A stretch of 64,000 bases of DNA from an uncultured virus (IMG/VR IMGVR_UViG_3300006204_000270) (IMGVR_UViG_3300006204_000270), one strand, 5' to 3'; positions 17,669 to 63,734 are shown, counted from the first letter of the stretch. Translations and numbers: made by a program. The notes: generated from the letters alone by a model not told the origin.

Positions 17669-17673
17669 TGGAC

Positions 17674-18515: not shown

Positions 18516-18530
18516 TCTGCTCACCTCCAT

Positions 18531-18570
18531 TTTTGGTCGTGCTTATATAATGACATATGCACGGCCAAAA
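18531..18570. promoter_or_regulatory. Inverted repeat over the RHH gene promoter (probable autoregulatory operator)
   Basis: TTTTGGTCGTGC ... GCACGGCCAAAA (1 mismatch), next to a minus-strand TTGACT. Confidence 0.55.
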
Positions 18571-18599
18571 GTCAAGTCCATTCCGCAAACTTTTTCTTT

Positions 18600-19950: not shown

Positions 19951-19963
19951 GTTCTTCTCCTTC

Positions 19964-20831: not shown

Positions 20832-20835
20832 TACA

Positions 20836-21267: not shown

Positions 21268-21281
21268 GGTGTTGTCTCCTT

Positions 21282-21695: not shown

Positions 21696-21697
21696 TG

Positions 21698-22476: not shown

Positions 22477-22532
22477 AGTGCTGCGCTCCTTTCTGTTGCC
22501 CTGCCATCATCAGGCCGGGTGGTCGTTTCGGC

Positions 22533-22697
22533 TCATTGGACTTTGAACGTCACCTCATGGCCGGGGTTTTCCCGGATAAGCTGCTGCTTGAGGTCGTCCA
22601 CCATCATATTGTTGTCGAGGGCTGCCTGCACAACGTCAACCAGTTTCTTGCCGTCGAGGTAGGCCCAAACGGTCTTTCTTTTTCTCCTGCGCGTCAT
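22533..22697 (-). CDS. Small hypothetical protein (54 aa)
   Basis: MTRRRKRKTVWAYLDGKKLVDVV..., AAAGGA RBS, read manually. Confidence 0.5.
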   Translation of the reverse strand: MTRRRKRKTVWAYLDGKKLVDVVQAALDNNMMVDDLKQQLIRENPGHEVTFKVQ

Positions 22698-22809
22698 AGC
22701 TGTTTCCTTTCTCCCCGTCCCGCCGATAGGTCAGCGTCTCTATTTGAGCTATCATGTTTGTGTTGTCTGGTATGTATGACGCTTTTAGCGTCATACGCTG
22801 GTAAAAAAA

Positions 22810-26539: not shown

Positions 26540-26710
26540 TTATGCCTCCCAGTCTCCAACAAGCTCGCGCAGGCGGTTCCGCTCCGCGAGGGCTTGCTCC
26601 TCTCTGACCTGTTCTCCGAACTGCTCAATGACATACTGCTGTGCCTTGATGATCTCCGCCTGCCGAATGCAGATGTCGGTCAATTCCGCAATAAGCTCCA
26701 CCCCGCTCAT
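26540..26710 (-). CDS. Small hypothetical protein
   Basis: MSGVELIAELTDIC..., overlapping the upstream stop codon. Confidence 0.5.
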   Translation of the reverse strand: MSGVELIAELTDICIRQAEIIKAQQYVIEQFGEQVREEQALAERNRLRELVGDWEA

Positions 26711-27339
26711 CCCGTCACCTCCTCCCAGCCATACACCCCCGGCTCCCACACATTGTTGTCCACACTCGATGTCCAATGCTTGTCCGCGTGGCTGACCTGC
26801 GCCCCGGCGGGGTACGCGTCCGTCGCTCCAAGGGGTTGGCTCCATTTCGGCCACTCCTCCTCCGGGTCGGAAATCGCTACCCAAAGGCTGGGGGCTGCGT
26901 CTGGTTTCCAATCCGCCTGTGACGTGTGATCGCCCAAACAGCGGTACAGCTTGCCGCCGTGCCTGCGGATATTCCCGGCTTTGTAGTTCACCGGGACGGC
27001 CCACGGAGCGAACACCTCCGCGTGTTCTCCCGCCGTGGTGTCGTCAATGCTCCCCGCCTCCGCCATCACGACGAACGCAATATTGCTCGCCTCCCCGACG
27101 GTCTGAATGCGGGCTGTGTTCTGGAAAATCAGCTCCCCGCTCTCCGCCTCCATCGGCACCGCCTCCGGCGCTCCGGGAATGGCCGTCCCGCTGGGGAGGT
27201 TGTAGAGGTCGCCGTTCACTGCAATGCCCTCCGCCTCCGGCTCCTGCGCCTCAATGTAGACCCCATCCTCGTTCTTTCTGACATAGCGCGGCCTGTCGCA
27301 CAGCGCCAGCAGCACCCCGCCGCTCATGATTGCATACAT
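26707..27339 (-). CDS. Tail-associated protein with carbohydrate-binding (CBM5/12-like) modules
   Basis: W....YKAG...LYRC...HTSQADWKP...LW; WSQPLGATDAY...NVWEPGVYGW. Confidence 0.7.
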   Translation of the reverse strand: MYAIMSGGVLLALCDRPRYVRKNEDGVYIEAQEPEAEGIAVNGDLYNLPSGTAIPGAPEAVPMEAESGELIFQNTARIQTVGEASNIAFVVMAEAGSIDDTTAGEHAEVFAPWAVPVNYKAGNIRRHGGKLYRCLGDHTSQADWKPDAAPSLWVAISDPEEEWPKWSQPLGATDAYPAGAQVSHADKHWTSSVDNNVWEPGVYGWEEVTG

Positions 27340-27345
27340 AGTCCT

Positions 27346-27768
27346 TTACCTCCTGACCTTGATTTTCAGCGCGTCCGCCAGCTTTTGCAGCTCCTCCGGC
27401 GCGGCTGCGAAAAATGCCTCGTTGAAGATGATAACGTCCAAGTCCTCCCGCAGGAAGTGCCGCCATCTCCGCCAGAGCATTTCCCGCTCCTCGTCCGAAA
27501 AACGGTAAAAAGCGCCGTCCGCTTTGGATTTCTTCTGCCTCTGGCTATAGGCGATTGCCCACGTCAGCGCCCCACGTTCGAGGCCCCGCCCGTCGTCGTT
27601 CTGTGCGAAATGCTTTTTGGCGTTCTCGCTCGTCGTGTAGCATACCACCTTGCCCTCCGCCGTCACGAGGCTTTCGCCCTCTGTTTCCAGCTCTGTCCCA
27701 TAGGGGATATTAAGCTGCTCCCCGCACAGGGCCAGCTCTTTGTACCTGTGGTGCGTAACAAATCTCAT
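27346..27768 (-). CDS. Hypothetical protein translationally coupled to the DGR RT
   Basis: ATGA overlap with the RT stop; MRFVTHHRYKE... Confidence 0.65.
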   Translation of the reverse strand: MRFVTHHRYKELALCGEQLNIPYGTELETEGESLVTAEGKVVCYTTSENAKKHFAQNDDGRGLERGALTWAIAYSQRQKKSKADGAFYRFSDEEREMLWRRWRHFLREDLDVIIFNEAFFAAAPEELQKLADALKIKVRR

Positions 27769-29021
27769 GCCGCCTTTGCCTCCTGCTGTACGGTTCCGTG
27801 CTGGCGGTAAATCCAGCCCGCGCCCGTCTTTGTCGCTTTCATCGTACACTTGAATTTCTTCTTTCTGGCCGCCAGCTCCGGCGCAAACAGCCGTGTGAAT
27901 TTCTCGTCCATCGACCGAAGCGTCCGATAGCTGTTGCACCTCTGCGCGTGCGCCCTCCATGACTGGTAGGATTGGATAGCGTCCTCCGGCGAGAGCTTTC
28001 CCACGTCCACCCAGCGCCGGAAAATGTCGAGTTTCCTCCGCATAGCCTTAATGCTCTTACGGCTCAACTTCATCGTCACCTTTCCACTCTCGCGCAGCGT
28101 CACCCGCATTTTGAGGAACGTAAAAGAGTGGTGCCGGAATGGGGTTATGATGTTCTTCTTGTCGCTCATGGCAATCCCCAGCTCCTCCGCCAGCGCGTAA
28201 AGGCACCGCTTGATGTCTGCCAGCTCCTCCAACGAATGGCTTATCACATATCCGTCGTCCATGTACCGCCCATACCCATGAATGCCCCGCACGTCTTTGA
28301 CGTAGTGGTCTATCGGGCTTGCGAAGTCGAGGGCGATAATCTGGCTGATCTCGCTGCCCAGCCCTACCCCGTGCTTTCGCTCCGCCGTCTTGTCTGCGGT
28401 TTTCATCTTCAAGAAGTCGTCCACATAGTCACAAAACAGCGCATATAGGCGGTCGTCTTTGATTTTGGCTCTGGCCCGCGCCTTAATGGTGTCGTGGGGC
28501 AGGCTCCCAAAGTACCCCTTGAAATCGAACTGGTATATTCCGCCCTGCGTCCCGTACCTGCGGTAGTGGTCGCGCAGGTGCTTTTTCAGCCGTCGGAGCT
28601 GGAAGTCCATGCCCTTTCCCGCAAGACTGGCCCCGTTGTCATATACAAAGCTGCGGGAGTATGCCCCCACGAGTAGGTTCTTGCATAGGCATTTCTGCGC
28701 CGCCCTCTCCTGTATCGGCAGCGCGTCGATGTCCCTACGCTTTCCGTGTTCGATGGTCGCAAAGCTCTGAAAGCCTCTGAATTTCCTTGTCCCGTCCCGT
28801 ATCGTCTCATACGTCTTTTGGCTCTCCGCCAGTAGGTCAGTCTCGAAGTTTATCGTAGACGTTTTCCACCGCGAGCCATTGCAGCATTCCTTTCCTGCCC
28901 GGCAGAGGTTCCCGAACGACATAACCTGCTCAAAGCTCTTTCCTCCGGCCTCCTGCGCCTTTCGCGCCCGCCGTGCTTTCCGCCGCTGGTACCGTGCCTC
29001 CCGCCTTTCTATACTGTTCAT
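27765..29021 (-). CDS. DGR reverse transcriptase
   Basis: FDFKGYF, GVGLGSEISQ, YGRYMDDG, FTFLK; next to TR and avd. Confidence 0.95.
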   Translation of the reverse strand: MNSIERREARYQRRKARRARKAQEAGGKSFEQVMSFGNLCRAGKECCNGSRWKTSTINFETDLLAESQKTYETIRDGTRKFRGFQSFATIEHGKRRDIDALPIQERAAQKCLCKNLLVGAYSRSFVYDNGASLAGKGMDFQLRRLKKHLRDHYRRYGTQGGIYQFDFKGYFGSLPHDTIKARARAKIKDDRLYALFCDYVDDFLKMKTADKTAERKHGVGLGSEISQIIALDFASPIDHYVKDVRGIHGYGRYMDDGYVISHSLEELADIKRCLYALAEELGIAMSDKKNIITPFRHHSFTFLKMRVTLRESGKVTMKLSRKSIKAMRRKLDIFRRWVDVGKLSPEDAIQSYQSWRAHAQRCNSYRTLRSMDEKFTRLFAPELAARKKKFKCTMKATKTGAGWIYRQHGTVQQEAKAA

Positions 29022-29371: not shown

Positions 29372-29503
29372 CTTAAATCCCGGCGCGAACCCATTCGAGT
29401 AGTTGGCGTTGTTGTTGCTGTTGCTGCCGTCGGTATTGACGAGCCTGAAATTGTTCGTGTTCGTCGCATTGACGGAGCGGAGCCACCAATTGCAGGCGGT
29501 GCC
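29372..29503 (-). ncRNA. DGR template repeat (TR), 132 bp
   Basis: Intergenic copy of both VRs, with 12 AAY codons; all mismatches fall at TR adenines. Confidence 0.95.
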
Positions 29504-29527: not shown

Positions 29528-29995
29528 TTACTGTTTCTGTGCCTCCGGCTTTTTGTGCCAGCCGTTCCAGCGCCTCTTGTCGCTGTCGGCTACTGCCCGG
29601 AGCTTTTTGAGCGCGTCGTTTCCTGCGGTCGTCCACCTCTGGAAAACCGCGTTGTAGTCCACCTTGCCCTCGAAAAAGTTGTTGCCCTCGTCCACCATCT
29701 CATAGCAGAATGTGATCTCTGCCAGCAGCGCCTCCGCGCTACTTATCGCTACTTTCATGTAGCGGTGCCGCAGCTCGAAGTCCCGCAGGCTCATTTCCTT
29801 GTGGACGTAGATCGCGTTCGCCTTGACTGCGTTGGTGTAGACCTCCCCCGCCAGAGCAAGCAAATTGTTTGTGATTATCCACCTGTAGCTTGTCGGGAAT
29901 TTCTTCACGGCCTGTATCGTTTCCACCCGCAGTTTCCGCGCCAGCGCCACAAATTCTGCTGCCGCGTCTTTTCTTCTGGATTTGTAAACCGACAC
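29528..29995 (-). CDS. avd: DGR accessory variability determinant (Avd-like)
   Basis: 155 aa helical protein (SVYKSRR...FPTSYRW...ANAIY) between target and TR; GTG start after AAGGAGG. Confidence 0.8.
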   Translation of the reverse strand: MSVYKSRRKDAAAEFVALARKLRVETIQAVKKFPTSYRWIITNNLLALAGEVYTNAVKANAIYVHKEMSLRDFELRHRYMKVAISSAEALLAEITFCYEMVDEGNNFFEGKVDYNAVFQRWTTAGNDALKKLRAVADSDKRRWNGWHKKPEAQKQ

Positions 29996-30037
29996 TTTTC
30001 CGCCCTCCTTTCCATTCTGCATTTCTGTCGTTCCGCT

Positions 30038-30059
30038 GGTGTGGACTTTCGTCCCCACC
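30038..30059 (-). promoter_or_regulatory. DGR hairpin downstream of VR1
   Basis: GGTGGGGAC-GAAA-GTCCACACC (one mismatch). Confidence 0.7.
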
Positions 30060-30085: not shown

Positions 30086-31915
30086 TTAGGCAACCTTAAA
30101 GCCCGGCGCGAACCCAAACGAGTAGTTGGCGCCGGTGCTGCCGCCGCTGCCGTCGGTACCGACGAGCCTGAAATTGCTCGCGGACGCCGCACGGACGGAG
30201 CGGAGCCACCAAAGGCAGGCGGTGCCCGTGTCGTTGTGCTTGTACCTTACGCGGCTGTTGCCGTTTTTGTAGTAGTCGTACTGCTTTTGGTAATTCTGCT
30301 CTGCGCTGTTTGCGTAGTAGCGGGTGCCGAATGCCTCGAACTCCGCAAGCAGCCAGATTTTGTCCTGCGTCGCCGTGACATAGCTGGCCGTGTTGTTGCC
30401 GCCGCCCGTGTTGTCGCTGTATTTGGTGCAGGAAACAATGGCGCTCCGCCAGTCTGCCGGGAGCGCATTAAGGAACTGCGGGCAAATCGTCTTGCGCATA
30501 TAGCTCCCGTTCCACCCGCCGCTGTTGGTATTTGTGGTGTTCATGCGGAATGCCGCAGAGCTGCCGCTGCTGTTGTAGCTGCCGTCCACAAAAGCAATGT
30601 CTTTCCCGGCGGAGTTTTTGCCGAACTGGAAGTGAATGCTGTTGCTGCCCTCCACGCTCGCATTGTGGTTAAAGCCGAGGATAATCGCATAGTAGGTGTC
30701 GTTGATCGCCAGCGAGCCGACCGTCCCGTTGACCTTAATGCCAATCTTGTCGCCCACGCTCCAAAGGTTCGCCGCCTGTCCGCTCTGGGCCGCCGCCTTG
30801 ATTTCTGCCGCCCCATTGTTTGCCAGTGTCCCGCTGGGCATACTCACCGTCACGCTCACCGTCTTGCTGGACGGCGCGGTGTGGTTCGTGCCTGCGGCCA
30901 CGTTGATGGTGACGGTGACGTTGCCTGTGGCTTTCCCGGTCACAGTAACGGTAGTGCCGGAGACGCTGACCGTAGCCGTCGCTGTGTTGCTGCTGCTGGC
31001 GGTGATCGCGCCGTCGCCCGCCCGCGTGACGGCCACCGTGCCTGTCTTTGTGGTGACGTTCAGCGACATCGAGGTCTTATTCAGCGAGAGGCTGCCCGCT
31101 GCCTTGCCAATGCTCCACGCCACTGTCTTTGCGCCCGTGCCGCCGTCGCTCCACTGGTGGTTCTTGTTCGGCGTGACCGTGGCGTTGTAGCTCCCAGCGT
31201 TGGTGCCGGAGGTCGTGCCGCCCAGCGTCATTTTCGCACTGTCGTAGTTGTTCAGCTGCGGGCTTTGGGCGCTCCCGCTATAGGTCAGGCTGCCTTTCTG
31301 TGTCGGGACGGCGAGGGTGGCCCGATTGATCTTCCACGTCACGCTCCTCGCGTCCCGTGTCCCGTCGTCCCATGTGTAGCCGATTTTCGGGGTAAAGGTC
31401 GCCGTATAGGTTCCTGCGTCTACGGCGGAGTAGTCCCCGCCAATCGAGAGCTTTTCCGCGTCATAGCCGTTCCATGTGGGGCTTTGGGCGCTCCCCGTAT
31501 AGGTGAGGCTCCCGCTCTGCGAGGGGACGGCGTTGATAATGCTCGTCAGCTTAGTTACCGCTTGGAGCGCTGCGTCCGCCGATGTCTGCGCGTTGCCCGC
31601 CGCCGTGACCGCCTCCTGTGCGGTAGATTTTGCGAGGTTCGCCGTCTCTGCGGCTGTGTTGGCCGTCCTGTTCGCCGTCGCCGCGAGGGTGGCCGCCCCC
31701 TGCGCTGTTTCCAGCGCCTCGTCCGCTGTCCCCTGTGCGCTCGTCGCGTCGCTCTGGGCCTTGTTCGCCGCCGCCAGCGCCGCCTCCGCCGTAGACTGTG
31801 CGCCGTCAGCGGTTTCCTGTGCTGCTTTTGCTGCGTCGCTGGCCGCTTGGATTTTCGCGTTGAGCTGTTCCTCGTCCCCGGCTCCGCCAGGGGTGTTCAC
31901 TGTTCCCCATGCCAT
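30086..31915 (-). CDS. Tail fibre/receptor-binding protein, DGR target 1
   Basis: Ala-rich heptad stalk, repeated VP(S/T)Q.GSLTY.GSAQSP modules, Ig-like segment, C-terminal WWLRS...GFAPGF domain containing VR1. Confidence 0.9.
   Translation of the reverse strand: MAWGTVNTPGGAGDEEQLNAKIQAASDAAKAAQETADGAQSTAEAALAAANKAQSDATSAQGTADEALETAQGAATLAATANRTANTAAETANLAKSTAQEAVTAAGNAQTSADAALQAVTKLTSIINAVPSQSGSLTYTGSAQSPTWNGYDAEKLSIGGDYSAVDAGTYTATFTPKIGYTWDDGTRDARSVTWKINRATLAVPTQKGSLTYSGSAQSPQLNNYDSAKMTLGGTTSGTNAGSYNATVTPNKNHQWSDGGTGAKTVAWSIGKAAGSLSLNKTSMSLNVTTKTGTVAVTRAGDGAITASSSNTATATVSVSGTTVTVTGKATGNVTVTINVAAGTNHTAPSSKTVSVTVSMPSGTLANNGAAEIKAAAQSGQAANLWSVGDKIGIKVNGTVGSLAINDTYYAIILGFNHNASVEGSNSIHFQFGKNSAGKDIAFVDGSYNSSGSSAAFRMNTTNTNSGGWNGSYMRKTICPQFLNALPADWRSAIVSCTKYSDNTGGGNNTASYVTATQDKIWLLAEFEAFGTRYYANSAEQNYQKQYDYYKNGNSRVRYKHNDTGTACLWWLRSVRAASASNFRLVGTDGSGGSTGANYSFGFAPGFKVA
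30095..30226 (-). repeat. Variable repeat VR1
   Basis: 132-bp match to TR with 21 mismatches, all at TR adenines. Confidence 0.95.
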
Positions 31916-35436: not shown

Positions 35437-36651
35437 TTAGCTGAATGAGCCGTCGTCCACCCACCCATACACCCAAGAGCTGCTGTCCGTGTGTATCAGG
35501 TGCCACGGGTGCTTTGCGCCTTTGGCGACGAGCGTTATCTTTGCCGGGCCTGCTTTCGGGTTGCCTGCGGCCTTGCCCGCCGTGCTGCTGACGTAATGCG
35601 GCCCGCCCTTGAATTGCACCACGTCCCCGACCTTGTACTCTTTGCCGCCCGTGTCCTCGCCCTTTTTCTCTTTGGCGAGGTCGTTTGCGTAGTTGAGCTT
35701 GAGCGACATAATGTGCTTGCCGTCCTCGAATGAGTGCGTGTCCTCGTCCACATAGAACGTCCGCGCCAGCCCCAGCTCCGGGATAATGATGTAAACCCCT
35801 ATCCCGGAAATGACCTCTGGAATGCCGATGGCCTCCAAGCTCAACGACCGCTCCGGCGTACTCTTTTCGTCCAGTATGCTTGCCACAAGGTCGTTCACCT
35901 GCGCCGCCGTCAGGCTTTCGTCCGGCTGGTCGATCTCTTGGAAAATCCCGATCTTCTTTTCCAGCTCCGCCTTGCTCTTTTCCGCGAGGGTCGTCCCCTC
36001 CTTGGAAATCATCTTCACGCGGGTCTTGATGTCCTCAATGCTCCTGCTGTAGGTGTAGCCGGTGAGGTTCTGGCCCACCTCAATCACCCACTGTAGAATG
36101 TTCTCCCGCCGCGTCAGGAGACTTATTTTGCCCTTGTCGCTGGCTACATAGTGCCGTATGCCCGTCGCGTCGAAGTCGAGGCTTAGAGCGTCCGCAATCG
36201 CGTCGAATGCCGTGGTCTTTGGCTTTGTCAGCTCCGGGATTTTATAACTGCACTGCGCCACCTCTCCCATCGGGAGGTTAAACCGGGTGCAGCAGTCCCG
36301 GAACACGTCGCTGGCCGTCTTATTCTCATAGGTGAACGTGTCCTTGTTGTTTGCCAGATAAATCCCATTGTCATAGGCCGTAAAGGTGAGCTTTTTCTTG
36401 TCGCTCTGCGTCTGCGCCATGATAATGCCCCGGAAAAGCTCTGTCCCATTGTAGCTGAAAATGCACTGATGTCCCTGCTCCACGTCGATTTCGCTCCGGG
36501 CGTGTTTGTACCCGTCGTCGTCAATCAGCGTCACCGCCAGCGTCCGGGCGGAGGAGCCTTTCCGGCCCCTCCACTTGACTTTCTCCACGAGCTGGGAAAC
36601 ATCGTACCCCTGCTCTCCCTTTAGGATAATCAGGCTTATCCCCTCCGCCAT
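35437..36651 (-). CDS. Baseplate hub (XkdQ-like) with C-terminal SH3-like domain
   Basis: AYDNGIYLANNKD; synteny. Confidence 0.8.
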   Translation of the reverse strand: MAEGISLIILKGEQGYDVSQLVEKVKWRGRKGSSARTLAVTLIDDDGYKHARSEIDVEQGHQCIFSYNGTELFRGIIMAQTQSDKKKLTFTAYDNGIYLANNKDTFTYENKTASDVFRDCCTRFNLPMGEVAQCSYKIPELTKPKTTAFDAIADALSLDFDATGIRHYVASDKGKISLLTRRENILQWVIEVGQNLTGYTYSRSIEDIKTRVKMISKEGTTLAEKSKAELEKKIGIFQEIDQPDESLTAAQVNDLVASILDEKSTPERSLSLEAIGIPEVISGIGVYIIIPELGLARTFYVDEDTHSFEDGKHIMSLKLNYANDLAKEKKGEDTGGKEYKVGDVVQFKGGPHYVSSTAGKAAGNPKAGPAKITLVAKGAKHPWHLIHTDSSSWVYGWVDDGSFS

Positions 36652-42335: not shown

Positions 42336-42854
42336 TCAGAGAACGATTTTCTTATACTTGTATTCCCAGAAATAGCCCCCGGCGCGTTTCTGCTTTCCCC
42401 GCAGGCAAGCGTTGATACAAGAGGCCGCTATTCCTGTCGCCCTTGCTGCTGCGCTCTGGCCGGGGTACTCCGCCACGACTTTCCCTGTCCGGGGGTCTAT
42501 CTGTATGATGGGCGTTCTGCTGCCGTTCTTTGCCGCCGCTCTCGCTGTCCTGCTGCCGTAGTTGGTGTTCTCCTCTGCGGTGGCCCATTCGAGATTTTTG
42601 ACCCGGTTGTTTTCCGGGTTTTCGTCCCGATGGTTCACCTGCGGCTTTCCCTCCGGGTTTGGGATAAAGGCAGTCGCTACAATCCTATGCAGGCGGTGTG
42701 ACCGCCTTACCCCGTCTTTTCCGACAAGGGAAATCTGCATATACCCATGCTTCTTCTTTGTCGGTTCCACAATCCGTATGCGCCGCACCCTGCCGAGATT
42801 GCTGACCTCATAAAGGCCCTCGTACCCGACGACTGGCCGCCATTTTTCCTGCAT
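42336..42854 (-). CDS. NUMOD4-HNH homing endonuclease
   Basis: WRPVVGYEGLYEVSNLGRVR; HRIVA.AF; VNHRDEN..NN...NLEW; C-terminal NUMOD1-like HTH. Confidence 0.9.
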   Translation of the reverse strand: MQEKWRPVVGYEGLYEVSNLGRVRRIRIVEPTKKKHGYMQISLVGKDGVRRSHRLHRIVATAFIPNPEGKPQVNHRDENPENNRVKNLEWATAEENTNYGSRTARAAAKNGSRTPIIQIDPRTGKVVAEYPGQSAAARATGIAASCINACLRGKQKRAGGYFWEYKYKKIVL

Positions 42855-51563: not shown

Positions 51564-53126
51564 TCAGCCCCCCTTGTCCATCTTCATCAGCAGCCGCTTT
51601 ACCTCTTTCATCACAGCTACCACCGCGTCGTCGTGGCTGCTGGCGGCCTTTTCTATCTGCTGTTGCAGGCCCATCGTGAGCTGGCCGATGTCAAACCCCT
51701 GCGCGGCTCCGCCACCCTGCGATTTGCTGTAGGATAGGGGAGTGTCGCCCCATTCCTCTGGGTAGTCCTCCGCCTGCTCCCCGAACGCCTCGTAGATGAT
51801 ACGCTTGGCAAAATTCGGGGTCACACCTCCGGCGTTGTTCGCTACTGTAAGCAGCTTGTAGAGGTCGTCCGGGTTGGTGATGTCCGGCTCAAGGAAATAA
51901 GCCTCGACGTGCTGGAATTGGTAGCCGTTCAGCAGGCGGTTGTTGATGGCCCATGCGAGGCTCCGGCGCTCCGGCTGGAATACCTGCTCCTCTGTGACCT
52001 CCTGCGCGGTCTGCGCCGTCGCCCGGTTAAAGTCGGTAGTATAGGCCACATAAAGGTCTGGGAGCTGGAAAGCCGACTGCACTTTCCGGCGGTTGTTGTC
52101 GAGGTAGCCTTGGAAAAGCTCGTCCTTTTGGAGTACGCTGGCGAGGTCTTTGACGGTGATTTTCGGCTTTTCCTGTTGGTCGAAGTCCGTCCGCCCGTCG
52201 CTCGCCTCTGTCTCCAAGAGGAGAAAAGCGTGTTGTCCGGCCTCTCCCTTGATGTCGTTGATATACTGCTGTAGCTTTTCAAAGCTCTCGTCAGTGAGGG
52301 TGCCGCCCTCAATCATAATCATCAGTGGCGTATGCCTGCCGTTGGTGAAATAGTTGTTGTTGAGGGTTTCCGCCCTCCGGCTCCCGTCTACGCCGAGTAT
52401 CTGGCCTATCCAGCGCACCTCCCCGTATGGCTCCGTCCCGATGGCGAACTCCATAATTTCGTTCGCTTGATATTCGAGGTCGAGACTTTCGCCCTCCTTG
52501 AGGTATTCGCCGTCCCGCCTGTCCATAATGCGCGGGTCGCCAAACTCCTTGAAAAAGACGGTCTTGCCGCCGATGTCCTGCCTGTACTTGCAGTAGCGTT
52601 TCTTGCGCTCTGTCTGCTGGCCGTGATGGTAGTATACCGTGGAGATATACGGGTCGAGCGGGCGGGTCTTGAGTATCGTGGGCGTTTCCTTGACGAACTC
52701 GATTTGCACCACCTCTCCGGCCACATTGCGAATGACCTCAAGGTAGGCAATGCCGTAGGTTTCCCGCGCCTCGATGATGTCCTCAAATACCTCTTTGGTG
52801 TCCTGCTCGATGTTCAGCAGCTCAATGATCTCCTGCGCCCGGCTGAACTCCGCCGCCATCTCCGGCGTTTCCTCCGCGTCCTCGATATACCGTATGCCTA
52901 TCCCAAACCCTGCGATATTGTTCTTGTAGGCCCTGATACATTGGGGGAGAATGGTGCTGTGCTTTACCAGATTGCGCAGGCCCCGCAGGTCGCTTGGCGG
53001 TGAAATCCAGTCCGCCGCCGCGTAGACCTCCTGCTCTGTAACCTGCTGGGAGGTGTCCGCTTTCTCGACGGGGGCCTGCTGCCATTTGATAATCCGCGCC
53101 CGTATCCCTCTTTTGGAATTAGCCAC
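51564..53126 (-). CDS. Portal protein (PBSX-type)
   Basis: YGEVRWIG, NYFTNG..TP, DFNRATA. Confidence 0.9.
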   Translation of the reverse strand: MANSKRGIRARIIKWQQAPVEKADTSQQVTEQEVYAAADWISPPSDLRGLRNLVKHSTILPQCIRAYKNNIAGFGIGIRYIEDAEETPEMAAEFSRAQEIIELLNIEQDTKEVFEDIIEARETYGIAYLEVIRNVAGEVVQIEFVKETPTILKTRPLDPYISTVYYHHGQQTERKKRYCKYRQDIGGKTVFFKEFGDPRIMDRRDGEYLKEGESLDLEYQANEIMEFAIGTEPYGEVRWIGQILGVDGSRRAETLNNNYFTNGRHTPLMIMIEGGTLTDESFEKLQQYINDIKGEAGQHAFLLLETEASDGRTDFDQQEKPKITVKDLASVLQKDELFQGYLDNNRRKVQSAFQLPDLYVAYTTDFNRATAQTAQEVTEEQVFQPERRSLAWAINNRLLNGYQFQHVEAYFLEPDITNPDDLYKLLTVANNAGGVTPNFAKRIIYEAFGEQAEDYPEEWGDTPLSYSKSQGGGAAQGFDIGQLTMGLQQQIEKAASSHDDAVVAVMKEVKRLLMKMDKGG

Positions 53127-54525
53127 TCTTTTTCACCCCTCTCTTTTTCGGTGGCTTGACTGGCAAGCAAAGCAGCAGCACACAGTCCGCCTCGTCCGGG
53201 GAGGGCTGCCCTCTTTTCTTCACCGCGTCCTTGCTCTCAATCTTGATTTTGCTGGCCTCTGTCAGCCCGTACTTTCGCCCGGAAAGCTGGGCCACGAGGT
53301 CGTCGTCGTCCGGGAGTATCAGCTCCACGGGCTTTCTGTTGCCCTCCTCGTCGTAGGGCTGTAAAAGGTTCTTCACCACGGACATCATGTAGGTAGTGCT
53401 GTCGTGGTAGTATTTGTGTTTTATCCTCTGGCCGAACTTCACGGGGTAAATCTCAAGCCACCAGAAACGCTCCGGGTCGCCTCGCTTGACCTGCCGGAGG
53501 CGGTCTACTACGCCGCCGCCCACGCCGCCGTCGTCCACCTTGACGGGAATGGGGGTCGTGAGCTTGTACCTCTGCGCCAGCTCCTCCCCAAGCAGGATAA
53601 TGTCGTCCGCCGTTTTCATGGTGTCCTGCCCCTGCCGCTTGCGGTAGAACGTGACCTTTTCGTCCACCTTGTAGCCTATCACCGTCTTGTCGTCTCCAAA
53701 TCGGGCCACGTCGCACCCGATATGCACCATAAGCGGGTTTTTCCGGGGAGAAAACTCTGTCATAATGGAGTTTTCGACGAGCGAAAGAGGTATAAAAATA
53801 TCGTCCTCTTGGAGCGGGAACTCCCCAGCGACACGCACTCGGAACACGTCGCTGTCCTCCCCGTACATTCGGGCGATAGTGTCTACGAAGTCCTGCGATA
53901 CCCGGCTGCTGTTCCTGCCGTCGATGTGGAACGTCGAGTAGCTGGCCCTGTTTTTGTTATGGCTGTCGTAGAAAAAGCCGGAAAGCTGCGTCGGGTTCCC
54001 GCACATCAGGAGCCGCGCCCCCGGCGTAGAGAGCGAGCCGAGTACAGGCTCGAATATGTTGTCCTCTACGCCGCTGGCCTCGTCGATGATGTATAGGACG
54101 TGTTCTGCGTGAAAGCCCTGTAGCGCGTCCGGCTTGCTGGCCGTCCGCGCTACTGCAAACCACTCCTCTGGGTAGCCCCGCATATAGACCTTTTCCTTTG
54201 TCCAGATAAGCTCATTCGATAGGGCCGAGTTGTGCCTTATCCACTTGCTGACCTCTGCCCATAGAATGTCAAATAGCTGGTGCTGCGTCGGGGCCGTGCA
54301 GGGTATCTTGGGGAATGGGCGCGTCAGCATAAACCAGATAACCGCCCACGCCTCCACCGTGCTTTTCCCTACGCCGTGGCCGCTCCTCACGCTTGTCATG
54401 GTGTTTGCCTCCAAGCTACGGAGTATCTTTGCCTGCTCCGGGTCTGGCGTGGCCCCGATAACGTCCTGCACAAATTCGACGGGGTGGCTGTTGTAAAACA
54501 GAATAGCCCGCTCTAAATCACTCAC
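53119..54525 (-). CDS. Terminase large subunit
   Basis: SGHGVGKS, IIDEASG, GNPT, DVARFGDD, SPDEAD; GTG start 54525. Confidence 0.93.
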   Translation of the reverse strand: MSDLERAILFYNSHPVEFVQDVIGATPDPEQAKILRSLEANTMTSVRSGHGVGKSTVEAWAVIWFMLTRPFPKIPCTAPTQHQLFDILWAEVSKWIRHNSALSNELIWTKEKVYMRGYPEEWFAVARTASKPDALQGFHAEHVLYIIDEASGVEDNIFEPVLGSLSTPGARLLMCGNPTQLSGFFYDSHNKNRASYSTFHIDGRNSSRVSQDFVDTIARMYGEDSDVFRVRVAGEFPLQEDDIFIPLSLVENSIMTEFSPRKNPLMVHIGCDVARFGDDKTVIGYKVDEKVTFYRKRQGQDTMKTADDIILLGEELAQRYKLTTPIPVKVDDGGVGGGVVDRLRQVKRGDPERFWWLEIYPVKFGQRIKHKYYHDSTTYMMSVVKNLLQPYDEEGNRKPVELILPDDDDLVAQLSGRKYGLTEASKIKIESKDAVKKRGQPSPDEADCVLLLCLPVKPPKKRGVKKSG

Positions 54526-55012
54526 CGCCGTCGCCCTCCCTCTTTTGGAATACGGATATGATCGCGTTCGCAAACTGGGCCGGGCCGCCGCCCGCGCCCT
54601 TTTCGGCCTCCTCCTCAAGCGTCCTGTTGAGCCGTTCAAGGTCGGTCGCCATCTTGATATACTCCTTGATGTCTTTGGGGGTCATGTCCTCGACTGACAG
54701 GCTCGATAGGGCCTCAAGAGCTTTCTTTTGGAGCTGCATGGCTATCCCGATATGGCGCTCTGTCATGGCTTTGCGGTCGGCCACAACCTTTTTCCGGGCC
54801 TCCCGCTCAAGGTCGTTTTCGTAGGCCCTGACGCGCTCCTGCCATCCTTTGTCCCGGCTCCAACGCTGAATAAGCGACGCACTCTTGCCCAACTTTTGCG
54901 CAACCGCTCTTGTACTCCGCTCCGCGCCCATGCTGAGATAGGTAGAAAAAGCCTCATACGCTTGTGCGCTCTCGCCCTTTTGACGCTCCCACGGCTTGTC
55001 AGTCTTTGGCAT
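54518..55012 (-). CDS. Terminase small subunit
   Basis: WERQKGES..AYEAF, HTH; lies upstream of the large subunit. Confidence 0.8.
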   Translation of the reverse strand: MPKTDKPWERQKGESAQAYEAFSTYLSMGAERSTRAVAQKLGKSASLIQRWSRDKGWQERVRAYENDLEREARKKVVADRKAMTERHIGIAMQLQKKALEALSSLSVEDMTPKDIKEYIKMATDLERLNRTLEEEAEKGAGGGPAQFANAIISVFQKREGDGGE

Positions 55013-55027: not shown

Positions 55028-55873
55028 TTATCGTTCTCGCGGCTCCGCCCCAACAATCCAAAAGAGAGCATTGTCTGTGTTGAGACCCTGCTCCAACAGG
55101 TATTTCATGGTCTTTGCCTCATACTGCGGGTGGAGCTTTAGCCCTCCTATACGCATTTTCTGCTGCTTTTCGTAGACAAAGCCCGGCGTATGGAAAAGGT
55201 CGTGGTAAATGAACTCCCGGCCTGCGCCGTATCGCTGGATAGTCGCCCGCACCTTTTCCCTGCGGTCGAACGCCGTGGATATGAGGTGAATGTTCTTCAC
55301 TTTCTTCCCATATTTTTCCACACCGATAATCACGCCGCTGGCGGTTATCCCGCTCCCGCAGGTGATATAAAGGTCGTCGAGGTCGTCCGGGATATTCTGC
55401 ACCTGTTCCGATACGGCACTCAAAAGCACCTCCCCGTAGTCGTCGAGGTTTATCCCGTACTGGACGAGGAACATTCCGCTCCGGGCCGCCAGCGCCTCCG
55501 CCTTTGCCTTGAGGACGTTGTGCCTGCCGCTTTTGGCTATCACTTCCACTCTGGCCCCGTAGCTCATGGCGAGCCGGGGCATAGCGCCTGTGGCGATTGC
55601 GTAGTCGCTGGCCCCCCCGTATGCCACAATGCAGGGTAGCCGATAGTGCCGGGCTGCTGCTGCCGTTATCGGCCCTTGCGGGGAGTGGATAGAGCAGTAG
55701 GTGATTATCCCCGTGGCCTCTGGTCTCCGCCGCAGTGCCGCCTCCACCAGTAGCATACACTGGCGCAGTTTCCCGCCGTTCACTCCTCCGGCCCCGAACG
55801 GGGCATATAGGTCGTCCCGCTTAAAGCGCATTCCGGCGATCTCCTGCACGGGGGTCAGGTCGTGGGCGTTCAT
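55028..55873 (-). CDS. PLP-dependent enzyme (ACC deaminase/D-cysteine desulfhydrase-like fold)
   Basis: KRDDL...GGKLR, TCGSGITASG, LHPQYEAK. Confidence 0.75.
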   Translation of the reverse strand: MNAHDLTPVQEIAGMRFKRDDLYAPFGAGGVNGGKLRQCMLLVEAALRRRPEATGIITYCSIHSPQGPITAAAARHYRLPCIVAYGGASDYAIATGAMPRLAMSYGARVEVIAKSGRHNVLKAKAEALAARSGMFLVQYGINLDDYGEVLLSAVSEQVQNIPDDLDDLYITCGSGITASGVIIGVEKYGKKVKNIHLISTAFDRREKVRATIQRYGAGREFIYHDLFHTPGFVYEKQQKMRIGGLKLHPQYEAKTMKYLLEQGLNTDNALFWIVGAEPRER

Positions 55874-56889
55874 TCCTCTGCCCCGAAAAGGCGCTTGTAG
55901 TATTCGGTCTTGCCTGCAAGCTCCTCCTGCATGAGGCCGTAGAAAGACTGGCCGTTGATTTTCTTGTTGATACCCGCTACCTGATTGAGGCTCTGGAAAC
56001 AGCCGCCCGTCCCCACCTGTTTCATCAGCTCTGTCGGCTCCGGGCTTTTGCCGTTCACGAGCATACAGAGGTTGTAGTCGTTCCCCTTAAAGCCCTCAAG
56101 CCCGTCTATCCCGCAGCACGTCATGCTGTCGCCCATTGGCCGCAGGCGGTTCTCCCCGGCGTAGAATTTCAGCCCGTGCCTGTGGCACTCCGCCCTGATG
56201 GCCTCGAAGTGTGGCCGCAGGACGCTCAATGGGTAGCAATGGTCGCCGCCGATTTTCACCATGCCCTTTTTCCCCTTGTAGAATTTCATGCCCTCGACCA
56301 CTACGCCGTAAACGCCTGCCGCCGCCAGCCGGGGGATATTCGCCATAACGTCTCTGAAAACCTCCGGCATATAGGGCTGTACCCGTACGATTACCCTCTG
56401 CACTCTGTGGGCGAGGGTTTCCACCATTTTCAGCCGCTCCTCGTAGGGCGGTGTCCCCGGTTCCAGCGGGTCGTACTTGCTGCATACCATGCTGATCTGC
56501 ACGACGCAGTTGCTCTTTTCCAGCAGGTCGAGGTATTCCGGGTCTACGACGAGCCTGCCCTTTGTGCTGACGACGAATGGGTAGCGCGTCTCCGCCAGCA
56601 GCTTTAAGCACTCGTAGCTGGCCCGGATATTCTTCTCGATGGGCTGGAACGGGTCGCTCATGCCGCCCCAGTGAATGGGGATATTCCAGTCGCACCACGC
56701 CGTCTCCCGGCCCCGCTTGCCCTCGATGAACGAGCGCAGGGCCTCGACGCTCTCGTCCCGCTGTATCTTGGCAATGTTCTGTTTCTTCTGGGCGAAACAG
56801 TATTTGCACCCGTGGCTGCACCCCTTGTAGGTGTCAAAGCGCACGGGGAGGTTGCAGAGAATGACCTGCGAGCCGCATTTGCACCCCAT
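55870..56889 (-). CDS. Radical SAM protein (SplB-like)
   Basis: DTYKGCSHGCKYCF (CxxxCxxC), GGMSDPFQP.E, STKG. Confidence 0.85.
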   Translation of the reverse strand: MGCKCGSQVILCNLPVRFDTYKGCSHGCKYCFAQKKQNIAKIQRDESVEALRSFIEGKRGRETAWCDWNIPIHWGGMSDPFQPIEKNIRASYECLKLLAETRYPFVVSTKGRLVVDPEYLDLLEKSNCVVQISMVCSKYDPLEPGTPPYEERLKMVETLAHRVQRVIVRVQPYMPEVFRDVMANIPRLAAAGVYGVVVEGMKFYKGKKGMVKIGGDHCYPLSVLRPHFEAIRAECHRHGLKFYAGENRLRPMGDSMTCCGIDGLEGFKGNDYNLCMLVNGKSPEPTELMKQVGTGGCFQSLNQVAGINKKINGQSFYGLMQEELAGKTEYYKRLFGAEE

Positions 56890-60294: not shown

Positions 60295-60654
60295 TCAGTA
60301 TTCCACCCGGCGGAGAATGCTCTCCGGCAAGCTGGGGAACATAGTGCAGAGGAAACTGTACTGCTCCTCCGGCTCCATGCCCTCCGCATAGTCAAGTATG
60401 CCGTCCAGCATGGCCGGGGCCAGTGTGCAGTTGTCGCCGGGGACGTTGTAGTTATCGTAAATCCACTGCCGGAACTCGTCTTTGCTCATGATCTGCTCCT
60501 TTTCCTTGCTCTCTACCGCTTGCAGGATTTTGACCGCCTCCCGCAAGACCTCTGCGTCGTGAACGAAAATGCTGTCCGGGTCGTCTTTCTCGATGAAACT
60601 CTCCCGGTCTAAAATAAGCTCGTTCAGCCCGTCGATAATCTCCTTGAGCGTCAT
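60295..60654 (-). CDS. Hypothetical protein
   Basis: MTLKEIIDGL..., ATGA overlap. Confidence 0.55.
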   Translation of the reverse strand: MTLKEIIDGLNELILDRESFIEKDDPDSIFVHDAEVLREAVKILQAVESKEKEQIMSKDEFRQWIYDNYNVPGDNCTLAPAMLDGILDYAEGMEPEEQYSFLCTMFPSLPESILRRVEY

Positions 60655-61454
60655 ACCTGCTGCGCCCCTTTCTCCCACGGCAGCTCCCGACGCATATTCA
60701 CCTTGCCGACGATGGGCTTGAGGCTGTCTTTCATAAAGACCGACGCGCTGGTGAGGTCTGCCGCCTCGCAGATATTGTCCACCCACGCTTTCTCCGGGGT
60801 GATCTTCCCGGCCCGGTTCCCCGTCTCCGCCCCGATGATGATAAGGCGGTCGCCGCCGAAACTGCCGAGGCCCACGTCCAAGTATTCGTGCAGGGGTTCT
60901 ATGCTCAAAAACGTGTTGAGGCTGATTGTCCCGTTAAATCTCTGGCTGCTCTTGCTGGTGATCGTGCTGCCATACCAGAAATTGTTCCGGCGGGGGAGGA
61001 GGGCCAGCCTGTCAAGCTGGGCATACCTCTGTGGGTTCTTGGTGAGGAACATATATCGGTGCTGCGGGGCCGCCTCGCAAGCGTCCAGCACCTCCACTAT
61101 CCATCGGGTCGGCACCCACGGGCCGAAAAGGTCGGCCATACTGCACACGAAAATGGTCTGCGGCTCCCGGCGGTGCTGCGGTTCGTCCAGCCTATAGCGG
61201 TGGAGTGTCGGCTCAAAGCCAAAGGGGAACGGGGAGTTGACCGTTTTCCCGTTCTGCCGTGTGATGGTGAGGGGCTGGTGAAGTTCGGCGCGGGGGAGCG
61301 GGTTGTGCGTCGTGACGCTCCCGTCGCTGCTGTCGTAGCCTCCAAACCGGGCGGCAATCCGCCGGGCGTAGCAATACTCGCACCCATGCTTGCAACCCGT
61401 GACCGGGTTCCATGTGCTGTCGCACCATTCGATGTTGCTTTTCTGCATTGTCAT
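60651..61454 (-). CDS. Phage Gp37/Gp68 (DUF5131)-like protein
   Basis: IEWCDSTWNPVTGC.HGC.YCYA, FVCSMADLF, FLTKNP, IIGAETG. Confidence 0.85.
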   Translation of the reverse strand: MTMQKSNIEWCDSTWNPVTGCKHGCEYCYARRIAARFGGYDSSDGSVTTHNPLPRAELHQPLTITRQNGKTVNSPFPFGFEPTLHRYRLDEPQHRREPQTIFVCSMADLFGPWVPTRWIVEVLDACEAAPQHRYMFLTKNPQRYAQLDRLALLPRRNNFWYGSTITSKSSQRFNGTISLNTFLSIEPLHEYLDVGLGSFGGDRLIIIGAETGNRAGKITPEKAWVDNICEAADLTSASVFMKDSLKPIVGKVNMRRELPWEKGAQQV

Positions 61455-61939
61455 GGCTCCTTTCTGCTCTGCGGTTTCATAAAGCAGAGCCAATGTGTGC
61501 TGTTGTTCTTCCCACTCCTGTTTCCGAATAGGGGCGGATAGGGGGAGAGGGGAAGTATCTCCCGCAAAGGCACCTGTATCTCCGACCACTTGAAAATCAG
61601 TACCCCGTCGTCGTCCAGAACTCGAAAGCACTCCTCAAACCCCTTTCGGAGCATTTCTTTCCAGTCTCCCTTGAGTACGCCATATTTCATAGCAGTCCAC
61701 GAGCTTTCTCCTGCCCGCTTGAGGTGCGGCGGGTCAAAGACGGCTAATTTGTAAGCGCCGTCCGGGAACGGGAGCGCGGTAAAGTCGCATACCGTGTCTG
61801 GCGAAATCTCGATGTATCGCCCCGGATAATACTCCTGGCGTTCTATCGCCCGCTTGTCGCAAAATTCCACGTCCGGGTTGTCTTTGTCAAACCAGAACAT
61901 TTTGCTGCCGCAAGCTACGTCTATCACCCGCTTTTCCAC
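61451..61939 (-). CDS. SAM-dependent (amino-)DNA methyltransferase
   Basis: DVACGSKMFW, FDPPH, ECFRVL, FKW. Confidence 0.8.
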   Translation of the reverse strand: MEKRVIDVACGSKMFWFDKDNPDVEFCDKRAIERQEYYPGRYIEISPDTVCDFTALPFPDGAYKLAVFDPPHLKRAGESSWTAMKYGVLKGDWKEMLRKGFEECFRVLDDDGVLIFKWSEIQVPLREILPLSPYPPLFGNRSGKNNSTHWLCFMKPQSRKEP

Positions 61940-61955
61940 TCTTTCCCCTCCTTTC

Positions 61956-61979
61956 TCCCCGGAGCTTTCGCTCCGGGGA
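61956..61979 (-). promoter_or_regulatory. DGR hairpin downstream of VR2
   Basis: Perfect 10-bp stem TCCCCGGAGC-GAAA-GCTCCGGGGA. Confidence 0.8.
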
Positions 61980-61995
61980 TTTTCTCGATTTTCGA

Positions 61996-62817
61996 TTAGA
62001 TGTCAAAGCCCGGCGCGAACCCATCCGAGAAGTTGGCGTGGCTGTAGCTGCGGCTGCCGCCGGTACCGACGAGCCTGAAAATGCTCGTGCTCGTCGCATT
62101 GACGGAGCGGAGCCAGTAGGGATACGTCCCATTGTCCCCGCACTCTTTCACCCGGTCGCGCTCCCGCTTGAAGATTTCGAGCTGGAAACTGTCGTCGATG
62201 TCTTTCCAGTAGCCCTCCTCCGAGGGGCCGAACATATCGGTGGCAGAGGGGAGCCAGAGGAGGTCTGCGTACTCCACCGTTTCGCCGTCGATGATTTCCG
62301 CCATCTGGCGCGGCTTGAAGATGGCCCGCCACTCCTGCGCGATATGGGGCAGAATGTCCACGAGGACGTGCGCCCGGCCTTTGCTTTTGAAATAGCCGCC
62401 CTTGTTGGTGGCCTCGTCGTTCATCACAGCCTCGTCCCAGCAGTCTTTGAACACAAACCGGGCCGCGCAACTGTCGCTGTAGCCACAAACCGCCGTAACG
62501 GTTCCACCCGTGTCGAGCGGAATGTCGATTTCATCGAAAGGCTTGATAACCCCGTCCAAGCGGCCCTCCTTGATGGCCGCTCTCAGCGTCTCCGGGGTGA
62601 CTTTGCAGGGGAGAACGCGCCGGGCGTTCATGGTGCCGTCCGGCTCCGGGCGCTGCTGCGTCCGCATTTCACGTCGCCACCGCTGGGCGGCCAGAATGTC
62701 CTCTCCAATTTTGTGCTTGAGGTAGTCGGTAAATGCCGCCCTCTCCTGTGCGATAACCTCCGCGCCGCCATTGACCATAAACTCGATTGCCCCAACCTTG
62801 ATTTTCACCTGTGCCAT
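61996..62817 (-). CDS. DGR target 2: non-structural early-region protein with variable C-terminal domain
   Basis: LWLPS..., YWLRS...GFAPGF; contains VR2. Confidence 0.9.
   Translation of the reverse strand: MAQVKIKVGAIEFMVNGGAEVIAQERAAFTDYLKHKIGEDILAAQRWRREMRTQQRPEPDGTMNARRVLPCKVTPETLRAAIKEGRLDGVIKPFDEIDIPLDTGGTVTAVCGYSDSCAARFVFKDCWDEAVMNDEATNKGGYFKSKGRAHVLVDILPHIAQEWRAIFKPRQMAEIIDGETVEYADLLWLPSATDMFGPSEEGYWKDIDDSFQLEIFKRERDRVKECGDNGTYPYWLRSVNATSTSIFRLVGTGGSRSYSHANFSDGFAPGFDI
62005..62115 (-). repeat. Variable repeat VR2 (remote)
   Basis: 111-bp match to TR 29375-29485 with 14 mismatches, all at TR adenines. Confidence 0.93.
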
Positions 62818-62832
62818 TGCCTTTTCCTCCTG

Positions 62833-63045
62833 TTATTTGTATTCTTTTCCTGTGTCTTTGTCTCTCAATGTAATCCGGCCTACAACCTCAAATCCGGCCA
62901 GTTCCGCCGTCTGTTTCAGAACCGGGATAAGCCTGCCTATCACCGCGAGGCGTTCCGCCTCCTGCTGCTGGCGCTGCTCCCTCTGCATATTGTTGTAAGC
63001 CGTCCCCGCTGTCGGGTCTGGGTAGCCCTCCGAGTTTTTATACAT
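62833..63045 (-). CDS. Small conserved phage protein
   Basis: MYKNSEGYPDPTAG...GFEVVGRITLRDK. Confidence 0.7.
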   Translation of the reverse strand: MYKNSEGYPDPTAGTAYNNMQREQRQQQEAERLAVIGRLIPVLKQTAELAGFEVVGRITLRDKDTGKEYK

Positions 63046-63056
63046 GGCCGTCCTCC

Positions 63057-63734
63057 TCAAGTCGCAGGCTGCAATGCTCCCTGCGCCGCGTCCGTTCCGG
63101 CCTCTTTCGGCGTGGCCGCCAGCCGCTCCGCGAGCCTGTCCAGCTTGTAGTCGGTTTCTTTCTGGATTTCCCTGTCCTTATCGAAAATGATAAGGAGCTG
63201 GGCCAGCATGATAATCACGTCCGCGATCTCCTCGATGATGTTGGCGTGGGCCTGCGCCCGTGAGCCTTGCCCAAACCCGCAGCGCCGTTCTTTACAGAGG
63301 GCCTTTGTCAGCTCGCTCATTTCCTCGATTGCCATATCCACCTGCGCATGGGTGCCGTAGGCGGCGACGGCCTCTTGCAGCACCTCCGGGCGCTTGATGG
63401 CTGGGAGGCCGCTCTCCTCATGCTGTTTCAGCCAACCGCGCACCTCCGCCATTCCCCAGAGGGCCATGTAGAGCGTCGCAAAAACGCCGTCGAGGTCGTC
63501 CGTGCCGTATTGCAGGTCGTCCATGAGGGTGTCGTTCAACTCTTGGTCGCTCAGCCCGGAAATGCGCTCCGGGTCGCCGTGCTTGCCGATGATCTCCCGC
63601 ATGAGGTTGAGGGCAGAGATTTCCCGCTCGAAATCCCTGTACCACGCCTCTTTGTCCTTGATGAATACGAAGTTGTGGGCCAGCTCCCACATACCCATGT
63701 CGCTGGTATCCTCGCAAATCTTTCTCAGCTCCAT
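63057..63734 (-). CDS. Protein with C-terminal MazG-like pyrophosphatase domain
   Basis: AIEEMSEL..AL...EEIADV. Confidence 0.7.
   Translation of the reverse strand: MELRKICEDTSDMGMWELAHNFVFIKDKEAWYRDFEREISALNLMREIIGKHGDPERISGLSDQELNDTLMDDLQYGTDDLDGVFATLYMALWGMAEVRGWLKQHEESGLPAIKRPEVLQEAVAAYGTHAQVDMAIEEMSELTKALCKERRCGFGQGSRAQAHANIIEEIADVIIMLAQLLIIFDKDREIQKETDYKLDRLAERLAATPKEAGTDAAQGALQPAT

Follow-up and report, generated by a model that had tools for sequence, protein, structure and literature searches.

In Bordetella phage BPP-1, the diversity-generating retroelement (DGR) is organised as mtd-avd-TR-brt, with the template repeat (TR) and the reverse transcriptase (RT) gene in one cassette and a single adjacent target, Mtd, which is a proven virion protein. 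DGRs, which in phages have been understood as a means to retarget tail fibres, represent the only known natural targeted protein hypermutation outside adaptive immunity. The 64,000-nucleotide stretch of an uncultured virus analysed here (IMG/VR IMGVR_UViG_3300006204_000270; hereafter the window) carries a DGR that belongs to a mouse-gut Oscillospiraceae prophage. This element resembles that of BPP-1 in its adenine mutagenesis, its GC-rich end similar to the initiation of mutagenic homing (IMH) element, the GAAA-loop hairpin following the variable repeat (VR) and the C-type-lectin target, but differs in having a second target 32.6 kb away from the TR and outside the structural module. That the repeat at this second site, VR2, is a live second target of the single DGR of the prophage is practically certain. 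As to the 273-aa protein that contains it (61996..62817, - strand; target gene 2), sequence features suggest that it may be a non-virion cytoplasmic binder involved in phage-host conflict, a reading to which a probability of roughly 40% is assigned.

The layout with a small, remote target is already in print, and so is its reading in terms of phage-host conflict, at least in the portions of four reports on which the comparisons below draw; a claim that distal, non-virion targets are new is overstated (PMC8008677; bioRxiv 10.1101/2024.10.15.618418; PMC11792537; PMC10743442). The Faecalibacterium phage FP_Toutatis (Toutatisvirus) possesses a second DUF6273 target 17,480 nt upstream of the TR, which belongs to the core genome of the genus and has no function assigned in the portion drawn on (Egorov et al., bioRxiv 10.1101/2024.10.15.618418). 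It shares with the window the single TR, two DUF6273 targets with C-terminal VRs, the remote position of the second one and the C-type-lectin fold, whereas the host, the TR-to-target distance and the interpretation of both targets as receptor binders by its authors are different. A tblastn search of the window protein against the phage collection returned no FP_Toutatis match at E≤1e-3. Faecalibacterium phages Lelie and CP11 likewise harbour a large and a small DUF6273 target of one DGR and, compared by description, resemble the window in the adenine-specific variation of both VRs across cognate genomes (PMC11792537).

In Quimbyvirus, the second DGR target (ORF84) is distal to the structural module and located among methyltransferases, and a role in phage-host conflict has already been proposed by the authors (Benler et al. 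2021, PMC8008677). By description, this apparently non-structural C-type-lectin target beside DNA methyltransferases is similar to the gene studied here; Quimbyvirus differs, however, in being a Bacteroides phage with a frameshifted RT and with the target on the opposite strand. The tgt2 products of gut myophages nd4 and nd12 are DUF6273-only proteins of 234-294 aa, in which the VR forms the C-terminal β-hairpin of a C-type-lectin domain and the TR is shared with a larger target, as in the window; an additional N-terminal helical motif is present in some of them (Baykov et al. 2023, PMC10743442). Their partner is a tentaclin, the VR of which lies near the 5' end, and not, as in the window, a fibre that has its VR at the C-terminus; in the parts of that report used here tgt2 is presented as belonging to the cassette, an Mtd-like nature being assumed. 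Remote targets could not, as Roux et al. state, be seen in their own survey.

The TR (29375..29485, - strand; repeat at 29372-29503), which is adenine-rich, aligns without gaps to VR2 at the 3' end of target gene 2 (62005..62115, - strand; homology to 62002-62133) over 111 positions with 14 mismatches. All 14 fall on a T of the TR + strand, i.e. on an adenine of the coding (-) strand; with 31 such sites among the 111 TR positions, the hypergeometric probability of this outcome is 1.3e-9. Independently of the alignment, a repeat search grouped TR 29372-29503, VR1 30095-30226 (84%) and VR2 62002-62133 (77%) into one family (D1). VR1, the repeat in the tail-fibre-like gene of the cassette, differs from the TR at 21 positions, 21 of which correspond to TR adenines, and 18 of 111 positions distinguish VR1 from VR2.

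The three repeats have in common a GC-rich 14-mer, GGGTTCGCGCCGGG (coding strand; 62009..62022, - strand, in VR2), which represents the start of an IMH-like element; in the three-way alignment it is followed by A in the TR and by C in both VR1 and VR2. The stop codon of target gene 2 is followed by a conserved post-stop string, TAATCGAAAATCGAGAAA (stop codon and string together 61981..61998, - strand), which is similar to TAATCAAAAATCAGAAA found after VR1, and a TAATC..AAATC pattern is also present 3' of the target gene in relatives. About 30 nt past the end of VR2, a GC-rich hairpin with a perfect 10-bp stem and a GAAA loop on the coding strand is located (61956..61979, - strand). The 71-nt stretch containing it has a folding energy of -15.7 kcal/mol (z -4.75), and none of 200 shuffled sequences was as stable. 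The hairpin after VR1 also has a GAAA loop, is imperfect and folds less distinctly (z -2.23; 5 of 200 shuffles as stable), while no hairpin was found downstream of the TR (folding z 0.42). Since the coding strand 3' of the VR2 hairpin lacks a T-run, this structure is unlike a terminator of the target gene; a promoter/terminator scan yielded consensus matches only. Of 52 related loci, 47 have a perfect hairpin of at least 5 bp (mostly 9-11 bp) 30-35 nt past the end of the VR, with a GAAA loop in 20, as compared with 10 among 2080 windows drawn at random from these loci; compensatory stem changes are seen in loci L066 and L070. Judged from these signals, VR2 appears to combine the marks of a DGR target, namely an IMH-like end, a TR that differs just beyond it and a hairpin that follows the VR and not the TR.

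Variation in natural populations is in agreement with this picture. The protein search led to the identification of 700 relatives at E≤0.001 among 1928 candidates, and several 90%-identity clusters hold 309, 193 and 52 different sequences. Two such clusters provided 28 of their 30 listed members for an alignment with the window protein (the two omitted have deviating lengths of 250 and 309 aa), in which 8 columns vary within residues 1-239 against 23 within residues 240-273. Residues 1-239 of these 29 near-identical proteins are thus almost invariant, hypervariability is confined to residues 240-267, and each of the 29 VR peptides is distinct. Of the 23 columns that vary at the C-terminus, 19 coincide exactly with adenine-containing codons of the TR; conservation is at least 90% in the remaining four (241, 247, 250 and 267).

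Between samples, the fraction of sampled words from 61000-63500 that is present in 13 mouse, rat and other sequencing runs is 0.95-0.96, as expected if 110 nt differ in 2.5 kb. Four of 24 listed runs were aligned, and two of them, both from mouse gut, gave contigs over the whole stretch. These contigs differ from the window at 19 and 17 positions, all within 62017-62100; TR-adenine sites account for 19 of 19 and 15 of 17 of the differences, and one of the two exceptions adjoins an alignment gap. The exact VR2 variant of the window was found in one record only among viral contigs (G001) and in none of the JGI metagenome contigs; being 100% identical to the window over 61400-63100, G001 is uninformative on variation. 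A contig from metatranscriptome run X16 covers 62086-62882, from which, as a contig of an RNA library, no inference on transcription is made.

A separate observation concerns a contig of run X2, which carries a TR with 14 differences from VR2 of the window and, 612 nt further on, the VR1 position, where the sequence is listed with 0 differences from VR2 of the window. If real, this match may mean that one variant can occupy either target, through conversion between the VRs or a cDNA common to both; alternatively, the way in which a second placement is scored may have produced an artefact. Exact searches in other data returned no second copy of the variant.

The two-target design is not restricted to the window. 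In all five near-complete relatives (52-61 kb; RT 77-85% identical), the RT, TR, VR1 and remote VR2 are present and repeat mismatches are located at TR adenines. The TRs of these five genomes differ from one another at non-adenine positions, and at these each VR2 matches its own TR, as predicted by continued homing. A more distant case is Dulem virus 34 from lemur faeces (PP511788.1, L002; loci 18094-22877 and 35648-36313), the target protein of which is 37% identical to that of the window. It harbours VR1 (20660-20788) in an Ig-like tail protein, followed by the TR (21402-21530) and the RT (21744-22877), and VR2 (~36196-36305) in a 221-aa DUF6273 protein encoded beside a methyltransferase, with a GAAA hairpin after VR2. 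The VR1-TR-RT plus remote VR2 layout is the same as in the window, although the TR-VR2 distance is shorter (14.8 kb). No DGR is annotated in the Dulem virus 34 record, where both targets, the RT and an Avd-like ORF bear the labels hypothetical or Ig-like. Megablast of window positions 40000-64000 against the phage collection gave no match.

The possibility that VR2 is a dead relic or a chance repeat of an old duplicated lectin domain, for which the paralogy of the two lectin domains is the sole argument, is virtually excluded: it is refuted by the adenine-only mismatches, by the variation confined to the VR in 29 of 29 variants and in the contigs of other runs, and by the tracking of the TR in five of five relatives. 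The first-pass annotation had drawn attention to the ungapped alignment with adenine-only mismatches and to the retained GC-rich end, post-stop motif and GAAA hairpin, all of which are borne out by alignment and folding. The check it had proposed, for adenine-specific variation at VR2 across related sequences, revealed such variation confined to TR-adenine codons, and its claim that one RT/TR pair diversifies both a fibre tip and a distal gene holds with respect to mismatches, IMH and hairpin, population variation and TR/VR2 covariation.

All parts of the cassette, i.e. the fibre gene, the Avd-like ORF, the TR and the RT gene, are on the - strand. The 418-aa RT (27765..29021) matches Pfam RVT_1 (32.3 bits, cut-off 29.6) and phrog_1423 (E 5.9e-73), and its translation contains LGSEISQ, an instance of the [I/L]GxxxSQ motif that marks DGR RTs. 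In the canonical place between VR1 and the TR lies a 176-aa ORF, a putative Avd-like accessory gene (29528..30058; phrog_30516, E 3.7e-12), which has no Pfam match; phrog_30516 also occurs between target and RT in locus L049. The tail-fibre-like product of target gene 1 (30086..31915) is 609 aa long; it has Ig-like repeats and ends in a DUF6273 domain that includes VR1. In addition, a 210-aa CBM_5_12 carbohydrate-binding protein and a phrog_29409 protein are encoded 3' of the RT (26707-27960); the latter is found 3' of the RT in L049 as well and may be a conserved DGR-adjacent gene.

The product of target gene 2 belongs to phrog_21980 and exceeds the gathering cut-off of Pfam DUF6273 (PF19789; 31.1 bits against 23.5) over residues 128-266. 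Its AlphaFold2 (AF2) model, computed from 100 diverse sequences, has a mean predicted local distance difference test (pLDDT) value of 93 and a predicted template-modelling (pTM) score of 0.77; an earlier input of 48 close homologues had given a pLDDT of 60.8 for the lectin half. In the model, a β-hairpin (residues 2-17) is followed by a helix of 35 residues (19-53), and a linker leads to a globular domain (residues ~76-273), which according to VIA-align has a C-type-lectin fold. At the top of the matches stands 9qa6 (Z 16.4), a DUF6273 domain from the N-terminus of a secreted IgA peptidase, followed by Legionella Lcl (8q4e, Z 8.7), the DGR target TvpA (2y3c, Z 8.2), a Bacteroides fimbrial tip (4eps, Z 8.0), many C-type-lectin-like domains at Z 6-7 and Mtd (1yu0, Z 5.3). 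With Foldseek against the PDB, 9qa6 was the sole clear match, the C-type-lectin relatives being visible only with wide VIA-align. According to the model, VR2 at the 3' end of the ORF would encode the last β-strands, the ligand-binding part of the fold. The lectin domain is 36% identical to that of the fibre (E 1e-13), while the N-terminal part gave no significant tblastn match to any other protein of the window, and its first 90 residues yielded only sub-threshold leads in the protein atlas. The prediction of a three-copy complex scored 0.10 against a mark of 0.42 and has no bearing on oligomerisation. The maximal 19-residue Kyte-Doolittle mean is 1.01, and the protein therefore has neither a transmembrane (TM) segment nor a signal-peptide-like hydrophobic core. 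Both this absence and the C-type-lectin fold had been anticipated in the first-pass annotation, as had the nature of the neighbouring genes (a small conserved ORF and a methyltransferase), which were found to correspond to phrog_6568 and phrog_954, respectively.

Target gene 2 is located among DNA-metabolism genes, 7.4 kb upstream of TerL. Upstream of it, also on the - strand, are the 75-aa small ORF (62833..63060; phrog_6568, E 1.1e-23), kept in 12 of 16 close relatives, and the gene of a MazG-like NTP pyrophosphohydrolase (63057..63734; phrog_2245, E 1.2e-35). Immediately downstream, on the same strand, lie the gene of the 162-aa DNA methyltransferase (61451..61939; phrog_954, E 4.7e-65) and a DUF5131 (Gp37/Gp68-type) gene (60651..61454), recognised from residue 64 of a long ORF (Pfam DUF5131, E 6.3e-40); for this gene a start at 61454, giving a 4-nt overlap with the stop of the methyltransferase gene, is inferred. 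In 15 of the 16 close relatives the genes follow one another as MazG, (small ORF), target, variable DNA-modification genes, RecU-type resolvase, ParB-like genes and TerL, the last being 5.7-8.2 kb downstream of the target. A wider survey, in which 12 of 14 chosen neighbourhoods from 62 viral loci were annotated, placed the target gene upstream of the late activator and terminase and next to methyltransferases, a PAPS (3'-phosphoadenosine 5'-phosphosulfate) reductase, a replication initiator, a helicase or an HNH gene. It was located within the head-tail module in none of the annotated neighbourhoods and in none of the 16 close relatives. No known anti-defence family was matched, no search aimed at PADLOC or anti-defence libraries having been made.

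A second, related early module is present in the window itself. The region 1-19400 represents another, related prophage-like element of lower G+C content (0.48-0.57), which encodes a serine integrase (15987-17585, + strand), a repressor/cro pair, SbcCD-like and DnaC-like proteins, methyltransferases and a Mom-like protein. Its early module is paralogous to the VR2 region (251-467 to 61033-61252, 70-77%; 1602-1775 to 62838-63058, 73-76%), and the slot of the DGR target and methyltransferase is occupied there by a PAPS-reductase gene. This PAPS-reductase homologue (669-1593) is split into two overlapping ORFs (669-1385 and 1351-1593) that match successive parts of phrog_424, which may be due to a frameshift.

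Five contigs (L023-L027) and the representative P0171 have a DUF4406 domain (E 5e-21; phrog_355, 'nucleoside 2-deoxyribosyltransferase') joined to the N-terminal side of the diversified DUF6273 domain. The gene for this fusion (e.g. L024:4878-5849) is located between an HNH gene and a helicase gene, and two pairs of fusion genes differ at 26 and 20 nucleotides, 22 and 19 of which are within the VR. In G012 (= L083 + L043), where the gene is interrupted by a 10-N scaffold gap, the fusion precedes Avd, TR and RT and the 15 in-repeat VR mismatches are at TR adenines; this is the only record with the TR of the fusion, none having been found in five fusion-bearing records (28-67% complete). The DUF4406 part has no PDB sequence match at E≤1. 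Such fusions fit a binder that would deliver or regulate an intracellular activity. A literature search revealed no paper naming both DGRs and DUF4406, and the fusion of this domain to a diversified lectin domain is an observation that was not found in print. More generally, it is conceivable, though on balance rather doubtful, that the small DUF6273 proteins constitute an antibody-like intracellular targeting module of temperate gut phages, encoded together with anti-restriction and DNA-modification genes. If so, the binder would track variable host immunity or take-over targets, and in the fusions with the nucleoside 2-deoxyribosyltransferase-like DUF4406 domain hypermutation would re-aim an enzyme rather than a virion.

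With respect to the protein of the window, the mechanism of diversification, held as practically certain, is as follows. The RT copies the TR RNA with errors at adenines, and the cDNA replaces the last ~110 nt of target gene 2, with the IMH-like GC-rich end and the GAAA hairpin downstream of it as the probable guides, so that ~19 codons for the C-terminal β-strands of the lectin fold are re-randomised. The product would be a soluble, non-virion binder, probably co-produced with the replication and DNA-modification genes, and may serve, inside the infected or lysogenic cell, as an adaptor for counter-defence or host takeover that recognises a variable factor of the host or of a rival phage; a diversified population of the protein would be kept so that some variants fit whichever host allele is encountered. 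The conserved genomic address and the enzyme-domain fusions favour this reading of the protein as a cytoplasmic binder. The lack of a TM or signal-like segment, an N-terminus unlike that of any other window protein and the similar reading published for Quimbyvirus ORF84 (PMC8008677) also speak for it. Of the earlier proposal, the diversification of fibre and distal gene by one RT/TR stands, while the intracellular ligand-binding role remains plausible on sequence grounds and is put no higher than that. Several facts weigh against such a role. The shared template and the 36%-identical lectin paralogue imply one binding-site library for both targets, which would suit a single class of cell-surface ligand, and all solved fold relatives at Z≥8 are extracellular. 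In L043, L047 and L049 the target gene directly precedes Avd-TR-RT, cassette-adjacent like Mtd in BPP-1; in L055-type phages a cell-wall hydrolase (Hydrolase_2) is encoded immediately upstream of the target, and in Dulem virus 34 a lytic transglycosylase lies ~2 kb from it. The position of the gene is, moreover, circumstantial as to its role, and the authors of the closest published cases assume receptor binding in the portions of their reports drawn on here (bioRxiv 10.1101/2024.10.15.618418; PMC10743442).

Two other explanations, each of which seems unlikely in itself, are favoured by the template held in common, by the paralogy with the fibre tip, by the neighbouring hydrolases and by fold relatives that are extracellular. 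According to one of them, the small protein is an accessory receptor-binding protein, adhesin or decoration protein of the virion that is encoded outside the structural module and docks on the fibre, baseplate or head via its N-terminal β-hairpin and helix, providing the particle with two independently variable binding tips. Besides the TR and DUF6273 scaffold common with the fibre tip, the fold matches to the DGR-diversified surface binders TvpA and Mtd, a long N-terminal helix reminiscent of the necks of trimeric collectin-type lectins (also among the fold matches), the cassette-adjacent targets of L043, L047 and L049 and the opinion of the tentaclin and Toutatis authors are consistent with it. 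However, the gene was never encountered in the head-tail module and precedes the late activator, the model appears to lack an Mtd-like β-prism or β-sandwich attachment domain, and the enzyme-like DUF4406 N-terminus of some members is hard to place on a virion; target 2 has neither the position in or next to the tail module nor the fibre-docking N-terminus of an Mtd-type protein.

The same template and the extracellular ligands of the solved fold relatives can also be accounted for, with similarly low likelihood, by a free, off-virion lectin directed to the cell envelope and to the class of wall glycopolymer that the fibre recognises, which would mask receptors (superinfection exclusion, protection of progeny from debris) or target a separate wall hydrolase. 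The Hydrolase_2 gene of L055-type phages, the endolysin-like phrog near the target in L049 and L061 and the lytic transglycosylase of Dulem virus 34 point in this direction, yet in the lineage of the window no hydrolase is encoded beside the gene. Lacking a signal peptide and TM segment, such a lectin would have no access to the wall before lysis; the two VRs of a single genome, here differing at 18 of 111 positions, are unmatched; and the DUF4406 fusions point to a cytoplasmic substrate. An active, conserved second target among replication and DNA-modification genes suggests that hypermutation in phages extends beyond host recognition by the virion. What the locus contributes to the systems already described is a family rich in members, of which mouse-gut data contain hundreds of natural variants, together with a genomic address conserved in several phage lineages; the fusion to an enzyme-like domain offers an experimental handle.

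The genes of the DGR-bearing prophage are arranged in the order lysis (~23.8-25.8 kb), tail, head, terminase (53119-54639) and, at the right end, DNA metabolism. One relative with direct terminal repeats is 61,290 bp long, indicating that the prophage runs ~19 kb beyond the window; this part is covered by G001, and prophage copies were found in metagenome-assembled genomes of Oscillibacter and other Oscillospiraceae. Two genes that form an unusual pair at this place are found directly upstream of the terminase (55028-56889): one is radical-SAM-like, with a score below the Pfam cut-off, and the other codes for a pyridoxal-phosphate-dependent (PALP) enzyme. The tail module includes an HNH endonuclease gene (42336-42854), located between the region of the tape-measure chaperone and the genes of the tail tube. 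An inverted repeat (18705-19032; 42 nt, 81% complementary, 244 nt apart) is present close to where the two elements meet, at the end of a 539-aa ORF that follows the integrase gene.

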